The position numbers were made by a program, and so were the translations under genes. Of a DNA stretch of 64,000 bases, positions 5,921 through 54,714 are shown one piece after another. The DNA lies in contig NW_024704742.1 in the NCBI RefSeq assembly GCF_018977255.1, positions 38,442,001-38,506,000 of the forward strand. The letters run 5' to 3'. The number at the start of each line of letters is the position of its first letter. The stretch's first letter is position 1. The DNA comes from Callorhinchus milii (lineage: Eukaryota). Below the pieces are notes generated by a model, which saw only the letters and a list, made by a program, of their open reading frames with translations, was not told where the DNA came from and did no database searches.

Positions 5921-6602
5921 GTAAGTAGCACAACAACAACTTGCATTCATATAGTTGATCCCAGGAAGCACGGCAGCTGTGATGAATCTGGTCCAGCCTC
6001 ATTGAGCTCAGTAGAGGCATTGTGGCACATCCTGGATGGTGTTTGCCTGGATTAATCGTGTTCAATATGGATTGAATATTGGGTGAGGTGAACCATAAAA
6101 CCGGAGTAACACCAGAGTAATATGCCAGTCAGTATCAGTTGTTTAGGACTGTGCGGTTCAATTAGTAGAAACCAGAAGCTTCAAATTTCTGCCAATCTCA
6201 GCCTTAGGACCAGTGTTATAAAATATAAGATGGTGCAGAATTTTGGAATATTCTTAAAATTCAATTTTAATTTGGAAACGACACCCCCAAAAAAGAACTG
6301 TTGAAAAGTGGCATTCATATTAATTGAAGAATATTTCCCAAAATTTCCACATGATCTTCAATTTGAAGACATCAGTCTTAAGGTCTTCACCATGAAGATT
6401 TTCAATTCTCTGGGATATACAAGTTAACCTATAAGAACATTCTTAAAGAGGTAGTGAAAAGTATACATTGCACACAAAAGGTCAAAGACCCCAATTGTGC
6501 TTTATAGTGTGTGTGTGTCTGTTTGTATTCACATGCATGCGTACACCTGTAAGTGTGCACGCCTGTGTGCCTACTATTAAAATGCTTTGCTCTCCCTGGC
6601 AG

Positions 6603-6745
6603 ATGCACTGTTCAGGACTGGCCTGGCACCCTGATGTTGCCACACAGATGGCTGTGGCCTCTGAGGATGACCGAATGCCTGTGATACAAATGTGGGATCT
6701 GAGGTTTGCAACCTCTCCTCTTCGAGTGCTGGAAAACCACACCAG
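6603..6745 (+). CDS. SEC31A: SEC31A coding exon (WD40)
   Basis: [47 protein letters not shown](R). Confidence 0.97.
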
Positions 6746-7228
6746 GTACAATCCGCCTTGCTTTAGAGCACCTCAGATCTAACTTGATTTGTTCTCTGGT
6801 GTAGCTCACTCAGTGAAATGCTAATTTTATTAAACAATAATTTATTTTGTGTTCACTGGCTTAGTTGGTGAGTGAGTCATTTTGCAAAGAGAACAACAAA
6901 TTATTAATTCAGGAGCCCAGACAGTCTCATGCTCTCAGGCGTATAATCGTTATCTTAACATTTATGAGTATGTAGAATTTTGGAAAGCAGTCTTGAATTC
7001 AGTTTTTATTTGCAGGATTTTTTTCCCGTGGTCCATTAGTGGTACTGCAGACAAACTGCTTCCAAGTTGACACTAATTTTAAGATACTGTATTTTTGTTT
7101 GACCTTTTTTAAGAAAATGGATTTAAGCCATTGAAAATTTTGGGCCCCTTTGCCCTCTTTAATAATTCCAAAAGAGTAAAGGGAGAGCATTCCATTGTGG
7201 CTGATGTAAATCCTGATGTGTTTTACAG

Positions 7229-7328: not shown

Positions 7329-8410
7329 GTAAGCTTTTGTTATTTGGTCCCTGGTATCTATCACATGTGGAAAGCCATCACTGTGCTTACGAGTGTCTAA
7401 ACCAGAGTTTCTGAGTGTGTGGAATGGAAAATTCCCTATGTCTGGAGAGGTAAGCAGAGAGTGGGATACAAAATACCACTATGGCCTCTGCACTGTGACA
7501 CTCAGCGCTTTCACTCACTTTATGACTGGGTCATAAATCTTTAACTTTCTTCAGTAACACATAGTATTTTACTTCTGTCCATCCATTTGCTGTCTACTCT
7601 GTTGATGGGCTTGTGGAAATTGCCTGAATTTTACTGATTTTGTTTTTAGCTGATACTGCGATATGAGTTTTTTAAAAAAATCACAAACATAAATTCTCCC
7701 AGTTTTCTCCTCATCCTGTGGTGAAGATGTTGACTTGATGGAGTATGGTTCCACAGTTGCCATATGGCCTGATTTCTTGGCCAAAGTGACCATTCATGTG
7801 TGAAGCTGTTTAGCCATTGGGATCTGTTATCTGAGTTATGTAAGCCATTCTGGAGGTTGTGAAAGCTGTGTGTGAACTCATGTACAATGAGAATTGTAGG
7901 TCTCCTAAATTATGTAATTAACAGCGCCAGAGGCTATTTGCCTGCGCTGTCACAACTAAGCCTGATCATGCCCTCATCTGGATAACAATCAGGAATAGGA
8001 CCCTGAGCTAATAGTCTCGCCCCTTCCCTCACAGCCCAGGTACACTGAGGCCAATCTTTGTGATTCTATTGTTGCTCAGACTGAGAGTAAGTAACTCAAT
8101 ACAAGGTTAAGTACATGGAACCTTCCTGTGACTCTGGCTTAGTTTGTCACTGGGGATTGCACTTTCCATTGTAAGAGCATTTCAGCTGCTGTTTGAAGGG
8201 GATGAAGAAACAAGAGGATGAACCTCTGCTACATTCTCCCCATATTGGTTGTGTGCAGTGGGTGACCGCATACTGTAAGTGCAGGGCCTACTGAACAGCT
8301 CTGTAAATAATTGAAGGTTGGATGGTGTATTGGGTAGGAGCAAGATGACTGAATTATTACCAGGTGTTATCCATCATAATTCATTATGTTTCCTCCTTGT
8401 CCCTGCCCAG

Positions 8411-8572
8411 GTTGTGTATGAGCTCCCTACAGCTACTCAGTGGTGTTTTGATATTCAATGGTGTCCCAGGAACCCGGCTGTCCTCTCTGCTGCAGCCTTC
8501 GATGGCCGCATCAGCATCTACTCCCTCATGGGCGGGAATGTGGATGAGCAGAGGCAGAGGCAGGCTGACAGC
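8411..8572 (+). CDS. SEC31A: SEC31A coding exon (WD40)
   Basis: VVYELPTATQWCFDIQWCPRNPAVLSAAAFDGRISIYSLMGGNVDEQRQRQADS; |gtaagt donor. Confidence 0.97.
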
Positions 8573-25145: not shown

Positions 25146-25401
25146 TAAGACCATCACACCCAGAGCTAGAATCCACTTTCTTCTTCCGACTCAATTTTTT
25201 AAAATGTATTACTTATTTTATCACAAAGGTGAAGGGCTGAGACTTGGACCCACAGTCTTGCTGACCTCATATCTATGGTGAAACAGCTGAGCTATGCAGT
25301 ACTTCATGCTTTGCTGGGGTTAATACCCTGATAAATGTCCAGTGGCTGTGTTATTGCTTGTTTACTGATTTAATAATAATGTGGTTTGTTCTTTTTCATA
25401 G

Positions 25402-25707
25402 CTTACCAACCACAACAGTATCCCCAGGGAGCAGGGAGACCCACTTTATATCAACCTCATCAGCCCATTGCCCCTCCACCTCCTTCTTCATACCCTTCCA
25501 GCTACTTGCCTTCTGCTCCTTCTCACTCCACAGCCCCACCGTACCCAGCACCGTCGCAGGCATCCCCTCCAATCCCTGGCCCCGCTTCTCCTTTCCCCCC
25601 TTCTCTCTCTGGAGCGTCCTACCAGCATGGCGGGCCTGGGGCTCCAGCCTCTTCTTCAGGCTATGCACTACCGACTGGACCAACAGGTACATCACTATGG
25701 CCAGCGG
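25402..25707 (+). CDS. SEC31A: SEC31A Pro-rich exon with two in-frame donors (25686 and 25707)
   Basis: YQPQQYPQGAGRPTLYQPHQPIAPPP...SGASYQHGGPGAPASSSGYALPTGPT(G), then ACAG|gtacat or, 21 nt later, GCGG|gttggt. Confidence 0.92.
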
Positions 25708-27643
25708 GTTGGTCGTTGGCACGCGGTTTAGTCTCGTTTTGAGCTAGCTGTTGCATGTTGTTTTGCATTGAATGTTAAGCTGCTGGCATCATTGAAATCT
25801 CTGCAGCATCACAGTTAATACAAAAAGCATGTGGATTTTTAGATCTGTCAGTCTATAGGAAGCAGCATCTCCTGCATGGTCTTTCATTTCTCAAATGGTC
25901 ACTCACCATCTTCGTGAAATGTTGCTTTTCTTAATCTTCCAACCCCACCTCACCCGGCTTGTTCACAAGCATCTAACACAATGCAAATCTCTTTTAACAA
26001 GAACGTGTTGTATGACAGGTGTGTGATATTCTCAGAATGGAACCAGCACAAGCCTCTTCTCACTCCTCACAAACAAACACAGCTTTGTCAAAAAACTTCT
26101 TTGCATGAAGAAGCTATCTCTTTAAATAGTACAAAAGGCTTTAAATTTAAGTGACTTGTAATCTGCGCGATGGAGAGCTGTGCCACTGTAAAGTGATACT
26201 GCTCAAATGGTGCATCTTTTCTGCTACGTTTTGTTTCAATCAACTAACATAAACTCTAAACTTTAGTCCTCCTCTCTGCCCCCAATCCCATCCCCATGCC
26301 ACTAGTGGGAAGGGGGGAAAGCCTGTATTACCCAGTCATTATCTTATCTCTGGCTCTCTTAAACTTCTGACCTCAATCATTAAAGCAAACAAACCGATTC
26401 TTCATAAGTATAAGTCTTCCTAAATATCCTCACGCTTCATCAAACACAGACCAGAACTGTCAGTTTCATCTTCACACCTCCACCAGTTTTATTATATATT
26501 ATCTGACTAACTTTCAAATTTTCATATTGTACAAGCCAACTGATAAGGTTTAGGGCAATAGTCCCAACAAAAACAACAACTTGCATTTATATAGCGCCCC
26601 TCATGCAGAGTAGCATCCCAGAGCGCTTACACTCCAGTGTAGTTCTGGGGAATTGGTGCCATCCTTCAGAAAAGACATGAAACCAAGTTCCCTTCTGCCT
26701 GTTCAGGATGTTAGGGATTCCATGATAACGATTTGAAAGAGAAGGGAGTTTGTGCTGGTAACCTTTCTGACCAGTAATCCTCCAGATTAATTGATTATTC
26801 ATCTCATGGCTGTTTGTGGCAATGTTCCAAATGCAAAAATGCCTGGTGTATGCTCTACAAAACACAGTTACTACACTCTTCTGTAATTAACCTATGCAGC
26901 ACTTTGAAAGCTTTCAAAATAATAAGTCATTATAAAACTTAAATGTTTTTCCCTTCTATAATCCAATCCTCTTTACATAAATTCTAAACGTTAATCTAGC
27001 TCAAAAAAGCTTCAGTCCTTTTTCAGGTATTTACAGACAATGGAGCAGTCCATTTAGTGCCCACTCTTATCTTCAACTATGTCTGCTTTATTCAGTATTA
27101 GTATTAAGATGACAGTAAATATTTCGCTTTTACAAATGTAAAATAGCACAGAAGCATGATATGAGATTGTGTGCACTGTTTAACATACTATTGTTGAGGT
27201 GGATAAACAGGTGATTGTCTGACACGGCAACTTTTATTTTAAGCATTACTTTGCAATTAACCGTGCTCTGACGTGAGGTCTTCAACCTGCTCTGTTTATG
27301 ACTTGGTTTGTGCTTCAAACGTATCTTGCACCAAGGTTCAGTAAACATACTGCTGCTGGAACTACGTCGGGTATGAGGAGTGCTGCTCTGTGATAACTCG
27401 AGCTCCTCCTCACCTCAGTGATGTGCATACATATAGATTTCTAAACGAAAGGTGTGTACACAGCAGCACTTCCAGCCTCTGTTTGATAAATAGAGTCTGT
27501 AACCTTTTAGTGCATGCAGCCGTGTTTAGTGTATCAAGTCTGCAGCCTGCACTTGATGTGCACAGACTCCAGCTTGCGTTTGGTGTGTATATAGCTGCAG
27601 ACTGTGTTTGGTGTGGATACAGCCTGCAGACTGTTTGATGTAC

Positions 27644-27796
27644 TAATAATAATCCTTGCATTTGATATTGCTCCTCACATAATATACTGTAAAATGAATC
27701 AACTGTATATTTTGTGGACGAAATGCGACAGCCAGTTGCGCACAGCAGTGTCCCACACACAGTCGTGGATTAAAGTGACTAAATTATTATTATTAA
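27644..27796 (-). mobile_element. 3' half of the tRNA-derived SINE fused to the LSM10 copy
   Basis: aataataatccttgcatttgatat...tgtaaaatgaatcaactgtatattttgtggacgaaatgcgacagccagttgcgcacagcagtgtcccac matches the SINE copies at 32429, 43900 and 51791. Confidence 0.88.
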
Positions 27797-27843
27797 TGCC
27801 CAGGGTTGGGGGGAGATACCCCCAATGCCCTGTGCGGTAGGGG

Positions 27844-28198
27844 TCATTTCCTGGACGGGAACTCCCTCCTTCCCTCATCTTTGCTCCCAAAGTTCCTGAC
27901 GCGGTGGGTCTGCTCCATCTGCCGCTCGATGGTGTCCATGATATCCACCTAGTCAAGGACGTGCACGTAGCACACGTTCCTGCCGGTGATGAAGAGCTGG
28001 GTGAGGCGGGACCCACCGGTCAGTGGAGGCCACGGCCTATAGGCGGATGTTTATGAAGGCGTCCACATTGAGCAGCCAGCCCTGCGCACTGCTCTCGTCC
28101 CGCAGCTCCACGGTGGTGAGCTGCCCGTGCAGGCCCTGCAGCAGAAGGAGGCTGTTCTTAGCGATAGTGCACTCCTAAATGGAGTGTCTGACTTCCAG
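27844..28198 (-). pseudogene. LSM10: LSM10 (U7 snRNP-specific Sm-like protein) pseudogene/retrocopy, antisense in a SEC31A intron
   Basis: Minus strand reads [60 protein letters not shown] / frameshift / [54 protein letters not shown]. This is colinear with LSM10 (…[21 protein letters not shown]…VDAFMNIRL…LFVTGRNVRYVHIP…HRVRNFG…). Start is CTG; three internal TAG stops; frameshift near 28012. Confidence 0.93.
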
Positions 28199-28606
28199 GA
28201 TGGATACATACAGACTACAGTCTGTGTTTGGTGTATCCAGACTACATACAGCCTGTGTTTGGTGTGTAACAATATCAGCTGCATATATGTCGAGTCACTA
28301 ATTCCCTGTGAGAAATTGGATCACTAATTCCTAATGAGGCCATAGGTCACTCATTCCTGGTGAGGACATGGATCTAAGGGAAGAATCAGGTCACTTATTC
28401 CCAGTAAAGAAGCAGATTCATTCATTCCCGGTGTCGACACAGTTTGAGCAATGAAGTATTCAGAATATTTGGTAAAGTAATCCTATCAAATGTTTGTGAG
28501 TATGCTCTACTTGTTAAAAAGCACACACTGAGAAGTAGTTTGTTAAAAGAAACACGAGCAGATGTATTCGTTCCAAGGGGTTATTACTTTTAATAATATA
28601 CACTTT

Positions 28607-28936
28607 GGAGTCTTGTAGAGTAGTAGTTAGAGCACTCGTATGGCAAGCGAGAGGTCCTGGGTTCGACTCCTGGGCAGGGCCAAACCTTATGCAAGTGCCC
28701 TTACTCCACATCCCTCTGTTTGCCTAGCAGTAAGTAGGAATTCGGTTATTAGTCATTTGGCAGATTGCTTTCCGGAGGTAATAATTACTTTTAAAAAAAA
28801 TCCACAATTGCACGCAACTAGCGTTTCACTCACAAAATATACTAAATTTACTTTACAATATATTCTGTGAAGCGCTTTGAGAACTTTCAATGACGTGACA
28901 AGGCGCTATATCAAAATGCAAGGATTATTATTATTA
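28607..28936 (+). mobile_element. tRNA-derived SINE, full length
   Basis: tRNA-like head ggagtcttgtagagtagtagttagagcactc...gggttcgactcc (B box), body, L2-type tail ending aaatgcaaggattattattatta. Confidence 0.88.
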
Positions 28937-29040
28937 TACTTTTGATTTATCCAATAATACCGCCCCAAAACCATCAGTATTTAAGGTAACTAAAGTATGT
29001 GTCTCTTTTTGCGCTGAATTCATTTTGCTTTTATCTACAG

Positions 29041-29079
29041 GAAACATATTTCCCCAGGACCCAACTGATTTTTTAGAAG
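29041..29079 (+). CDS. SEC31A: SEC31A 39-nt cassette microexon
   Basis: Pyrimidine-rich acceptor ttttgcttttatctacag|GA AAC ATA TTT CCC CAG GAC CCA ACT GAT TTT TTA GAA G|gtgaac = (G)NIFPQDPTDFLE(G); phase 1/1; same size and position as the mammalian NQSIQDQAPMLE exon (recalled). Confidence 0.85.
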
Positions 29080-31669
29080 GTGAACTAGATTTGGTCAAAT
29101 ATTACTTCTGAAATTCTCTTTGATTTTTGGAATCATTTTTGTTGATTCAAAACCAATTTTAGCAGACAGCAAATCACAACGAATGAGTAAAACTAAGAAT
29201 ATTTGATAATATTGCATTAAATTATTTCAGTTATTTGTAAGCTGTATTTTAATTGGTATAAATGGAAGGTCAGAACTGCACACGTCTTTGCATCAAACAC
29301 AGTTTCAAATATGATGAGTTTTCAGGTGTGTAATTTTTAATGTTTATTAAATGCACAAGTATTATACAATAATGGGGATGAGAGCTACTGCTCACATACA
29401 GTACAGCCTCTAATGGCCGTTCCTTCCTCTGTATTAAAAAGTGCTACCGCAACAGCTGGGGTTCAGAATCCCAACTACTCTTTGTAAAAAAAAAACAATT
29501 TCTCCTAAGGTTTGAGATCATGCAAAATAGTGGAACATTCTTACATTCAGTCTTAATTTTAAGCAGGTTCACCTCATTTCTTAAAAAGAACTGGCTTCCA
29601 AAATTAAGATTTTTTCACAATTCTGCCCAATCTTGCATTTTATGACAAAATAGCCAAGATTAGGTAGATTTTCAGAGCTCTGGTGAATGGAGTGAGAATT
29701 TGGGGGAACTGCAGCACTCTAAACAGAAGTGATTTGAAGTTCAGTGCTGGGTGGGAAGATGTGTGCAATTCTGAACTTCGTTCTAAAGCCCATTGAGGTT
29801 TTGGATAGTGTGAAGTCCACAGTGCATCAGGGATCAAAACACACAGCTCATCAGACCATTCTCTCTCAACCTACCTCTCCATTTTAACGCTCATTCAAGA
29901 CATATATTGTCCCAGTTGAATTAAAAGTCACTTTCATTGTCATCAAGTTGTCCCCTGACTTGGATATGTTGCTATTGATCCTGAGGAGGTGGAATTACTG
30001 GAAGATTTCTTCTGATCAGGTTTGATTCCAAACGTCATGGAAACTTATGGGGTTTCAGGATAACTTTGAAGCCGAGGAAAAAAATTCCAAGGGGAAAAAA
30101 AAAACGAGAGATGGAAAGTTCCCATTGAATTTTGAAGATGACCTTGTTGAAATCCTCATTATAGCCTAAGAAAAGTGCTCCTGTATTGCTCGTTTATGGA
30201 TTTGGTTTCGATCCTCTGTGGGCTGTAAAACAAGAAATATTTTATGTCAGAAATTATAACCTGATACAAGTATCAGGATGTGGAAAATAATCATTTCTTA
30301 CCCCAAAGTATTTTGCAACTTTACTACAAGTTATAATGTCATTGGCAGGCGCAGGGTTTTGAAGCACCCTGCTTGTAACCAATCACCACCTGGTTGTATG
30401 GAGTTGCTGGTGTGTGGGTGGCACAGTGATAGTGAACCTTTCCTGCCTTATTTGTATTAGATTTGCGGGGTGGCCTCAGTGCAAGTGGCTCCACAGTACC
30501 ACGGGAAACTGTCTGCCAAATCCACCCCCATTCTCTCTGCCACCAACCACATGTGGTTCAAACACAGGTTATCCACTGTTCTCTCAAGTGTTCCTGGCTG
30601 CAGGTTGTTCCGAATCTCTGAGAAATGACCACATTTCCCACCTATGCAGGCGGGCTCAGCTCTCAAACACAGGCTGGGGGGGTGGGGAGCGCAGGGGGAT
30701 AGAGTGGAGAGTTTAATTCTCATGCCTCCAGAGACTTTGAATAAACCACTCCTTGAAACTGTACTCTTGCTTTTGGGGGCAACAGTGTCTGCTCATGTAC
30801 ATGCTGGTCACACACTTGAGAAAGATCTAATGATAATTGAGAGGTGAACAAGTAGCAACAATTATCAACACATGACAAGGTCATTTCTGAGTTAGGGTTC
30901 AGCTTGGTTCAGTTCTTATCACTCTCGCCTATGTGTTGCAGGATTATACATTCATGCCCATGTTTGAACTCTAGCCCAAGCTGACACTCCCTGCAAAACA
31001 GTCACTATTCTTGACATTAATTATCCTGGAGGTATTATGAGACATTTGGGTGCAATAAGGTCCTATAAGACGTAACCTGTTGTGTGTTTGATCCAGTTAC
31101 ATGAGTAGGACACAAAGTTGAGATGTTTGAGGGAGTGGGCTTGTGTTAATGTCTGCTCTGTTTACCTTTCTAATCTATCTGGAGAACAACCGGGAAACTG
31201 GTTTGTTCAATTATGAAATTGACTGTAATTTGATTTTTGTCATTCCCTGAACTCAATTTCATTGATTTAGTGCTATCTGCTGGACAAGACGAGAAACAGA
31301 CAGTGTGTGTTGGATCAATTGCAGTTTCTTCACTGCAGTTAATACTTGTAATACCACCACAAGTGCTGCTAATTCATATTTGCATTGAAAACTGAAAAAT
31401 AAAAGCGCAGTTTATAAACATAAATCCTCCTTCAAAGTGCTCCACCATTCAGTCGCACTGCTGTCTGAAACCAGTTCTTCCTTACTAACTTAATTTGTTA
31501 AATTCTTGACAATTAAAATGTAATGGACATTTGGTAACAATTTGGAACAGAGTTTTAAAATTGATGATGAGACTGCTGTTTGAACACTTGAGGTACAAGT
31601 TCATGTAAACATTTTTATTTGTTCTCTGTATGTAATTCAGATTAAAAGACACACAATTCTTTTCTGTAG

Positions 31670-53703: not shown

Positions 53704-54714
53704 GCTCACACATGTAATGTTACAAGTGGAAAGTGGAAGCGGGCTGTTACTTCCAGGTGGGGTTCAGCAATTCTGGATACTCTCTTTTGTCAGCTCTGAT
53801 AATGGGTCACAATACAACACAATAACATTTACATTTATATTGCGCCTTCCAAAGAGCTTCATATAGTTGGTTGAGCAACCAACCTGAGGAGATGAGATCT
53901 GAAGAGAATGGGAGGAGAAGTGACCAAAAACACAGTCAAAGGGGGGGGTGGGCTTTGAAAATCGGGAGGGAGTGGGGGAGTCAGAGGGACTAAGGGACAG
54001 AGTTACTCATCTGGTTTTAAACACAAATCTATTTTTCTCTTTCAGAAGCTCACTGACATATGTGGATTTCCAGCGTTTCTGTTTCATATTTTGGATTTCC
54101 AGGATCACAGCTTTTGTTTGGGTCGAACAATGGATAGACTGAACAGTATTTGTTGGGCAGGGAATTATATTAAACAAGTAGCTCAGGGAAATTTCTAGGC
54201 TGAGTCAAGAATTTGTTTTATAATAATAATCCTTGCATTTGATATAGCGCATTATCACAAATTTGAAACATCTCAAAGTGGTTCATAGAACATACTATAA
54301 AGTGAATTGACTGTGTGTTGGAATATTCTTCTTGAATCAAGAATTCTACACCTGGGAACAAACCCGACATATTACAATTCTACATGTGGCTCACATTTGT
54401 TCTTTGATAGCATATCCCTTTATGCTTACACATTGTCAAAAAGAAAAATGGTTGCATAATATACCAAATGTATCAAATGAAGAACTCTGCTCTTTTCAGT
54501 CACTTGCGCAAAGCAGATTTAGAAACTATAATTCCGTGAGATACTGGATAGCATTTTTGGGTTCTGCGACGTATAGATGCAATCCATCACAATTCTATTC
54601 GTATTCATCTTTTGAGGAGCAAGGACTTTTAACAACAACAAATTGCACCTATTTATTCAATAGGTTCTTTAACATTTTTTCCCCACGAGTTGTGACATTG
54701 CAATAAAAACAACA

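Follow-up and report, generated by a model that had tools for sequence, protein, structure and literature searches.

A dead LSM10 retrocopy in Callorhinchus milii that appears to have been copied from a SINE/L2 tail present in the 3' region of its parent gene

Gene retrocopies are commonly attributed to enzymes of the L1 type, for which any polyadenylated RNA can serve as template, and integrants of the eel element UnaL2 are known to end at tail repeats. Genomes ruled by L2/CR1 elements are said to make few retrocopies, as their enzymes need their own 3' tail (PMC5470649 and PMC3747384, in the portions available). According to the same portion of PMC3747384, such stringent LINEs mobilise RNAs bearing their tail, and the eel and zebrafish L2 experiments, as related there and in excerpts of PMC5729268, predict copying of any RNA that carries this tail. 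For eel UnaL2 and its SINE (Kajikawa and Okada 2002, as summarised in those two sources) copying of a tail-bearing RNA likewise starts at the terminal repeats and requires no poly(A), and many copies are 5'-truncated. The locus described below differs from UnaL2 in that the template would be a natural cellular mRNA whose tail comes from a SINE fragment in its 3' region, and in that our evidence is genomic whereas that for UnaL2 comes from an assay, with L2-2_CM assigned here from the literature alone (an excerpt of PMC5499810).

Several other systems resemble this locus in part. In the available text of PMC5199112, Alu/B1 elements embedded in 3' UTRs are over-represented among the parents of processed pseudogenes, and a SINE in the parent 3' UTR is likewise linked to retrocopy formation; that link is a statistical one, reported for the relaxed, poly(A)-dependent L1, whereas the copies reported here end physically at the tail and have no poly(A). 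Platypus snoRTE (Schmitz et al. 2008, as cited in the accessible part of PMC5499810) is also a cellular RNA made mobile by a LINE-derived tail, but it is a multi-copy SINE-like family derived from a small RNA, and here we deal with single dead mRNA copies. The L1-U6 and Magnaporthe MGL chimeras (PMC2104539, in part) likewise place a cellular transcript 5' of a retroelement 3' part in one insert; these were formed during reverse transcription and have no parent junction, whereas here the junction is in parent DNA. A classical L1-type processed pseudogene likewise is a dead copy on another chromosome with short flanking duplications, but the present insert has neither poly(A) nor AATAAA and its 3' end is the SINE/L2 tail. 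A literature search returned no paper on such a route for L2 and cellular mRNAs, the closest being PMC5199112 as far as its accessible text goes.

The window analysed here is a stretch of 64,000 nucleotides of the C. milii genome (contig NW_024704742.1, positions 38,442,001 to 38,506,000 of the forward strand). We read its positions 28198-27641 as a dead, 5'-truncated LSM10 retrocopy, made from an mRNA in which a SINE half followed the stop codon, with copying from the SINE tail, and we assign this reading a probability of about 0.8. All features of the insert and of a second, independent case are collected in Table 1.

Table 1. Coordinates of the LSM10 insert, its flanks and the PPIL1 loci; positions without a contig prefix are those of the window.
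Feature	Position	Strand	Basis
Whole inserted unit (dead ORF, UTR remnant, SINE 3' domain, tail)	27641..28198	minus	homology to parent locus L002
Dead LSM10 reading frame	27844..28198	minus	83% DNA identity to parent ORF; codon table with 18 outgroup proteins
3' UTR remnant, 49 nt	27795..27843	minus	alignments with parent UTR
SINE 3' domain, CmiSINE / SacSINE1-CM type, from (AAT)n linker on	27654..27794	minus	identity to genomic copies
Microsatellite tail ATTATTATTAGTA, (ATT)n end of SINE/L2 tail	27641..27653	minus	aligns to parent ATTATTATTATTA and to family tails
Candidate target-site duplication, 5' copy, CATC	28199..28202	minus	read directly
Candidate target-site duplication, 3' copy, CATC	27637..27640	minus	read directly; abuts tail
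Local minisatellite, units ~28 nt, ACACCAAACACAG.CTG.AG.., 3' side	27400..27636	minus	TRF
Same local minisatellite, 5' side of insert	28203..28290	minus	direct reading and self-comparison
Dead PPIL1 copy	C16:142411-142944 (in L086 = G000:C16:141400-143000)	minus	genome search, alignment
Dead 5'-truncated PPIL1 copy	C2:64551955-64552273 (L088 = G000:C2:64551620-64552010)	minus	spans exon junction
Multi-exon PPIL1 parent, 3' region	L087 = G000:C19:4376780-4377250		alignment

The segment is one discrete insert of 558 nt, located on C1, with its parent on C55. Homology with the parent extends from 28197, within the start codon (its TG), as far as the SINE tail; when 2 kb around the copy were compared with the parent locus by word-7 BLAST, nothing more was found except other SINE fragments. 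An initial annotation, made from the letters of the window alone, had let the unit end in the SINE tail, which it does, at 27641 and not at 27644, 3 nt farther. Both flanks belong to one local minisatellite, for which TRF reported a period of 28 at 27578-27634, and the flank 27562-27615 is 75% identical to the flank 28210-28266. When the insert and one CATC are taken out, a minisatellite unit is restored (..TATCCATCAAACAGTCTGCAGG..). With 4 bp only, the CATC duplication is weak evidence for insertion; for the SINE family, a k-mer test on 18 of 29 full-length copies gave target duplications of 3-6 nt, a value made unusable by a head boundary about 8 nt off, and by eye 5-8 bp were seen in a few copies. 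A paralogous empty site was sought genome-wide and none was found, each flank being unique in the genome. Outside the inserted unit, about 420 nt from the LSM10 5' end, a full-length old SINE copy lies in opposite orientation at 28621-28937 (~70% identity to the reference copy). Farther off, the plus strand of the window holds an open Pro/Gln-rich stretch at 25401-25688, between ..ttcatag and gtacat.., which looks like a coding exon; if it is one, the retrocopy would lie in antisense orientation to a host gene, within or next to one of its introns.

Read on the minus strand, 28198->27844 can be aligned, codon by codon, to the intact LSM10 ORF found elsewhere in this genome (83% DNA identity, E 2.9e-103), and the two frame pieces match LSM10 at the protein level with E values of 3.5e-20 and 1.2e-17 in the genome search. 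This alignment confirms the dead, full-length LSM10 frame with a CTG start that the initial annotation had read on this strand: CTG stands in place of ATG at 28198-28196, and the final stop of the copy is the TGA at 27846-27844. The frame is interrupted by TAG stops at 28177-28175 (codon 8), 28039-28037 (codon 55) and 27951-27949 (codon 87), and it has lost 3 nt after 28152 and, with a shift of frame, 8 nt after 28012; in the codon table these stops, and a deletion of about 8 nt near 28012, fall where they had been annotated. Arg-to-Cys and Arg-to-Trp changes, previously ascribed to CpG decay, are seen at codons 10 and 80 (Cys) and at codons 42 and 63 (Trp), and Arg has changed to Gln at codon 40. 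The parental ORF has 35 CpGs, which in the copy are kept in 18 cases, read TG in 8 and CA in 1, and are otherwise changed or in a gap in the remaining 8. The longest open piece, 28037-28174, matches the Pfam LSM model with an E value of 0.0015 and 18.6 bits, below the cut-off of 23.4 bits.

Behind this frame the unit runs directly, and in the same orientation, into the 3' half of a tRNA-SINE, as the annotation had stated; the distance from the stop, given there as about 48 nt, is 49 nt. The first ~27 nt of this remnant are homologous to the parent UTR and are followed by one C-rich unit, TCTCCCCCCAACCCT, and the remnant terminates in GCATT (27799-27795). The SINE part begins at the linker, in agreement with a junction placed at the internal (AAT)n run of the SINE. 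From 27794 to 27641 it consists of the SINE 3' domain, with 78-83% identity to four other copies in the window and 88-92% identity over ~120 nt to the best genomic copies. Direct reading of the inserted unit found no AATAAA, no ATTAAA and no A-run of at least 8, and hence none of the poly(A) signature of L1-type copies; no SINE head lies 5' of LSM10, where the local minisatellite stands instead. The lack of AATAAA, of poly(A) and of a SINE head had all been noted before.

The full SINE, as seen for example at window 44250-43900 (minus), comprises a tRNA-like head, a body, an A-rich linker, a 3' domain of ~175 nt and (ATT)n. It has at least 11541 first-look candidates in the genome, and about ten copies lie within the window. 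The 3' domain is common to elements with different bodies, and many head-less copies begin at the linker. The window SINE matches the published description of CmiSINE / SacSINE1-CM; both the names and the link to L2 are taken from the accessible part of PMC5499810, which describes a 3' tail common to CmiSINEs and SacSINE1-CM and homologous to the L2-2_CM LINE, with a similarity of 78.6% for the CmiSINE tail. Folds of well-kept family copies have two predicted hairpins (z about -1.9), and folds of single tail sequences are weak (z -0.4 to -1.9). In the insert, an internal deletion of ~30 nt near 27681-27674 removes the predicted second hairpin, so that the copy as it stands today lacks it, which weighs against copying from this tail. 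We take this deletion to be later decay, because deletions in the second-hairpin region are frequent across the SINE family. An Rfam search of 26000-30000 gave no match.

As a separate observation on this family, 16 matches cover the last 90-115 nt of the SINE only, and their starts fall in a narrow band at reference positions 237-258. Such tail-only units were found in L004, L006, L008, L009, L019-L022, L029, L031, L032 and L034, and at window 54220-54314. Among 11 of these units of ~110 nt that were compared, no common upstream homology that would indicate a LINE body was found. They may represent either mobilised RNAs of minimal length or LINE ends after strong truncation.

Two LSM10 loci were found in the genome, the window copy and an intact parent on C55, and no other locus scored better than E 0.12. 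The parent ORF (G000:C55:107295-107660 = L002:1500-1865) encodes 121 aa, is 100% identical to the protein named LSm10 of C. milii, matches the Pfam LSM model with an E value of 2.8e-13 and, at E<=1e-10, has 437 relatives. Behind its stop codon come the homologous UTR (to L002:1892), a C-rich minisatellite, GCATT, the linker and a SINE 3' domain. The latter (L002:2501-2652) has the same orientation and the same linker start as that of the copy and ends in ATTATTATTATTA. The copy is therefore collinear with its parent from the start codon through the SINE tail. Aligning the two loci had been proposed in the initial annotation as a check, and the alignment places a SINE half behind the stop in the 3' region of the parent and the end of 5' homology at the ATG. 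In the copy as in the parent, GCATT immediately precedes the linker; it is not part of the SINE, because it was absent within 22 nt of the linker in all 67 other family copies (0/67). The C-rich minisatellite of the parent (L002:1907-2489) measures ~580 nt, with a period of 23 and ~24 units, and is represented in the copy by one unit; either the repeat grew in the parent or the copy lost units, and we assume one of the two. Because the CDS is continuous in the parent and nothing of the 5' UTR is present in the copy, intron loss cannot be demonstrated for LSM10 itself.

Other features of the parent locus were a second minisatellite directly upstream of the ATG (L002:1000-1424, GT-rich, with 30-47-nt periods) and two more sense pieces of the SINE/L2 tail less than 600 nt downstream (L002:2680-2775 and L002:2895-3070), of which one is partial and one lies behind a different SINE body. 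Contigs of three runs from two studies, guessed to be RNA, cover the CDS at L069 5227-5680 and the unique downstream stretches 6509-7169 and 7982-8553. Among the contigs listed from four runs, whose RNA nature is likewise a guess, none extends across the C-rich repeat or the SINE half of the LSM10 parent.

We compared the divergence of the two parts of the insert. Measured against the majority of 105 family copies, the SINE part of the copy has 11 changes in 108 positions (family median 8.3%), mostly C>T or G>A. Among 75 unselected copies its minority states showed no linkage, apart from one pair with an uncorrected p of 0.04, and they look like private mutations. In the LSM10 part, copy and parent differ at 20/119, 9/118 and 25/118 first, second and third codon positions, which corresponds to 7.6% at second and 21% at third positions. 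With 18 outgroup proteins in the codon table, a hand count assigned ~22 derived amino-acid or nonsynonymous codons to the copy and ~4-6 to the parent (38, 110, 119, possibly 27, 63, 92). Non-CpG nonsynonymous changes, again counted by hand, number ~17 over ~265 sites and, like the differences at second positions, come close to the divergence of the SINE part; CpGs are kept at 18/35 in the LSM10 part versus 4/5 in the SINE part, the latter read off the alignment by hand. By these comparisons the LSM10 and SINE parts look equally old, as expected of one insertion event.

The SINE copy of the parent was more diverged (18/106, versus 11/108 in the window copy), with GC-biased changes and different internal deletions, and it differs at the sites of the copy's minority states. 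No excess of derived SINE states common to copy and parent was found: there are only two such non-majority states, one a 50:50 polymorphism and one a rare A>G, and 53 of 105 other family copies have at least two non-majority states in common with the window copy. Direct descent from this parent would thus need an entry of the SINE into the parent shortly before retroposition, together with faster, GC-biased change at this GC-rich locus since. The third-position divergence of 21% in the CDS is compatible with faster evolution of the parent locus and is not proof of it.

A second gene shows the same arrangement, and here introns are present in the parent. A scan with the cyclophilin Pfam model detected an intronless stretch with stops at C16:142562-142918, whose best solved relatives are PPIL1 (E 1.4e-20). 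In this C16 copy the stop is followed by ~50 nt of UTR and then by the SINE 3' domain from linker to tail (88.6% to consensus), in which the second-hairpin region of the tail is retained. The PPIL1 parent has at least three separate exon matches, C19:4373843-884, 4374949-5105 and 4376586-6867, which are contiguous in the C16 copy; query positions 202-263 were not among the matches listed in this exon search. Its 3' order is stop, ~60 nt of UTR, AATAAA, an A-run, the SINE 3' domain (L087:93-264, 81% to consensus), the tail and unique DNA, in which another AATAAA lies ~110 nt past the tail. Both PPIL1 copies are collinear with the parent through UTR and SINE and end at the tail, and beyond it the three flanks differ. 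Within the SINE, three derived states are common to the parent and the C2 copy, the maximum for the parent versus any of 147 family copies. A 17-nt deletion in the parent SINE is found in neither copy, so changes in the parent after the split do occur. As judged from these alignments, the PPIL1 copies have lost their introns, which shows a route from an mRNA with a SINE half to a copy started at the SINE tail, and PPIL1 has the proof of intron loss that LSM10 cannot supply.

The initial annotation had left two routes to the LSM10 insert. In one, which the evidence favours, a SINE half sits in the 3' region of the parent and copying of the transcript began at its tail; the collinear parent locus and the PPIL1 case both support this route. 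In the other, a LINE reverse transcriptase would start on free SINE RNA and at the A-rich linker jump to LSM10 mRNA ~49 nt past the stop, or, in a hybrid variant, jump into a homologous SINE copy inside the LSM10 transcript. Template-jump chimeras are described for L1 and the fungal MGL LINE (PMC2104539, in part), template switching has also been proposed for SINE genesis (PMC5729268, likewise in part), and a SINE part near the family consensus, with no excess of derived states in common with the parent's copy, would suit such a jump. However, the gene-SINE junction already exists in the genomic DNA of the parent, where orientation and SINE start are those of the copy and the GCATT absent from all 67 other copies examined is present as well, so no template switch is needed; moreover, the PPIL1 junction is identical in the parent and two separate copies, which independent jumps would not reproduce. 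We therefore regard a template switch as unlikely. For the same reason the word "chimeric", under which the insert had been annotated, describes a real LSM10-SINE unit but is a loose term, as the junction pre-exists in parent DNA.

A DNA-level duplication, by which the C55 segment from the ATG to the SINE tail would have been copied to C1 without an RNA intermediate, draws on the intronless LSM10 CDS, in which intron loss is undemonstrable, and on the lack of poly(A). Homology extending beyond the transcript, named in the annotation as the result that would speak for such a duplication, was absent at the parent locus: the 3' edge is the end of the SINE microsatellite tail, the 5' edge is the ATG, and no flanking DNA is in common. 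The insert is also short, lies on another chromosome and is flanked by CATC, and the PPIL1 copies combine the same 3' end with lost introns, all of which makes this explanation very improbable. Two separate events, an older LSM10 fragment joined by a later 5'-truncated SINE at its 3' edge or the reverse, would be helped by the great abundance of the SINE and by the many head-less copies that start at the linker. Yet past the SINE tail there is neither LSM10 UTR nor poly(A) and the minisatellite resumes at once, both parts have similar divergence, and the parent has the same arrangement; we give this explanation hardly any credence.

The preferred reading, copying of an LSM10 mRNA from its SINE tail, would proceed as follows. 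The C55 parent carries a head-less sense SINE (linker, 3' domain and (ATT)n tail) behind its stop codon, and the literature assigns that tail to the L2-2_CM LINE. A read-through transcript of the SINE element would have been recognised at the tail by the LINE reverse transcriptase, and priming at (ATT)n would explain that there is no poly(A) and that nothing 3' of the tail was copied. From there the enzyme would have worked its way through the short UTR and the entire CDS, ending at the start codon, and the cDNA would have been integrated on another chromosome (C1), inside the minisatellite, with a duplication of ~4 bp (CATC). Subsequently the copy may have decayed through three stops, a frameshift, loss of CpGs and the 30-nt deletion in the tail hairpin region, and in the parent the C-rich stretch may have expanded to ~580 nt and the SINE copy diverged. 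Three parts of this scheme we infer, namely a transcript that took in the SINE, L2 as the acting enzyme, and internal priming; the choice of enzyme follows the literature (PMC5499810, in part).

How common such copies are was approached through family scans of the genome. The LSM scan gave 14 matches, of which none but the LSM10 parent spans the domain without a break, and the cyclophilin scan gave 24; a cyclophilin locus on C4 was considered and proved to be an ordinary intron-bearing gene with no SINE. RPS3A is a major retrocopy source in mammals, and the RPS3A scan here gave 4 matches, which are the exons of one gene. With Slu7 there were 10 matches in two intron-bearing loci, and neither the RPS3A nor the Slu7 scan of the genome found a retrocopy. 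A scan with the GAPDH C-domain gave 0 matches of any kind and is uninformative. The second Slu7 locus (G000:C7:20519914-20523509) retains its exon-intron layout, but two of its exon matches contain stops; probably it is a pseudogene that arose by DNA-level duplication. All three dead copies collinear with a mature transcript (LSM10 one, PPIL1 two) come from parents with a SINE half, a very small sample drawn from four informative scans. A search for other CDS fragments on the same tail, which the initial annotation had suggested genome-wide, thus yielded PPIL1 with two sense copies, within the scope of these four family scans. Many retrocopies have been reported in cartilaginous fishes, with 3' ends not addressed in the accessible part of that preprint (bioRxiv 10.64898/2026.06.26.734816).

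The three copies, from two genes, are direct structural evidence for a natural way round the tail requirement of L2/CR1 enzymes, in which an mRNA acquires the tail it needs from a SINE fragment in its 3' region, and they give a testable rule on which genes are retro-duplicated. In addition, the LSM10 retrocopy would preserve an older state of the parent 3' UTR, before the repeat expansion to ~580 nt. Only tentatively, and with some doubt, do we suggest that retrocopies in this genome come mainly or only from mRNAs with a sense SINE/L2 tail in their 3' region. If this were true, the genes open to retro-duplication would be set by SINE insertions into 3' UTRs and not by expression level, and each such retrocopy would keep a tail that could let it move again.
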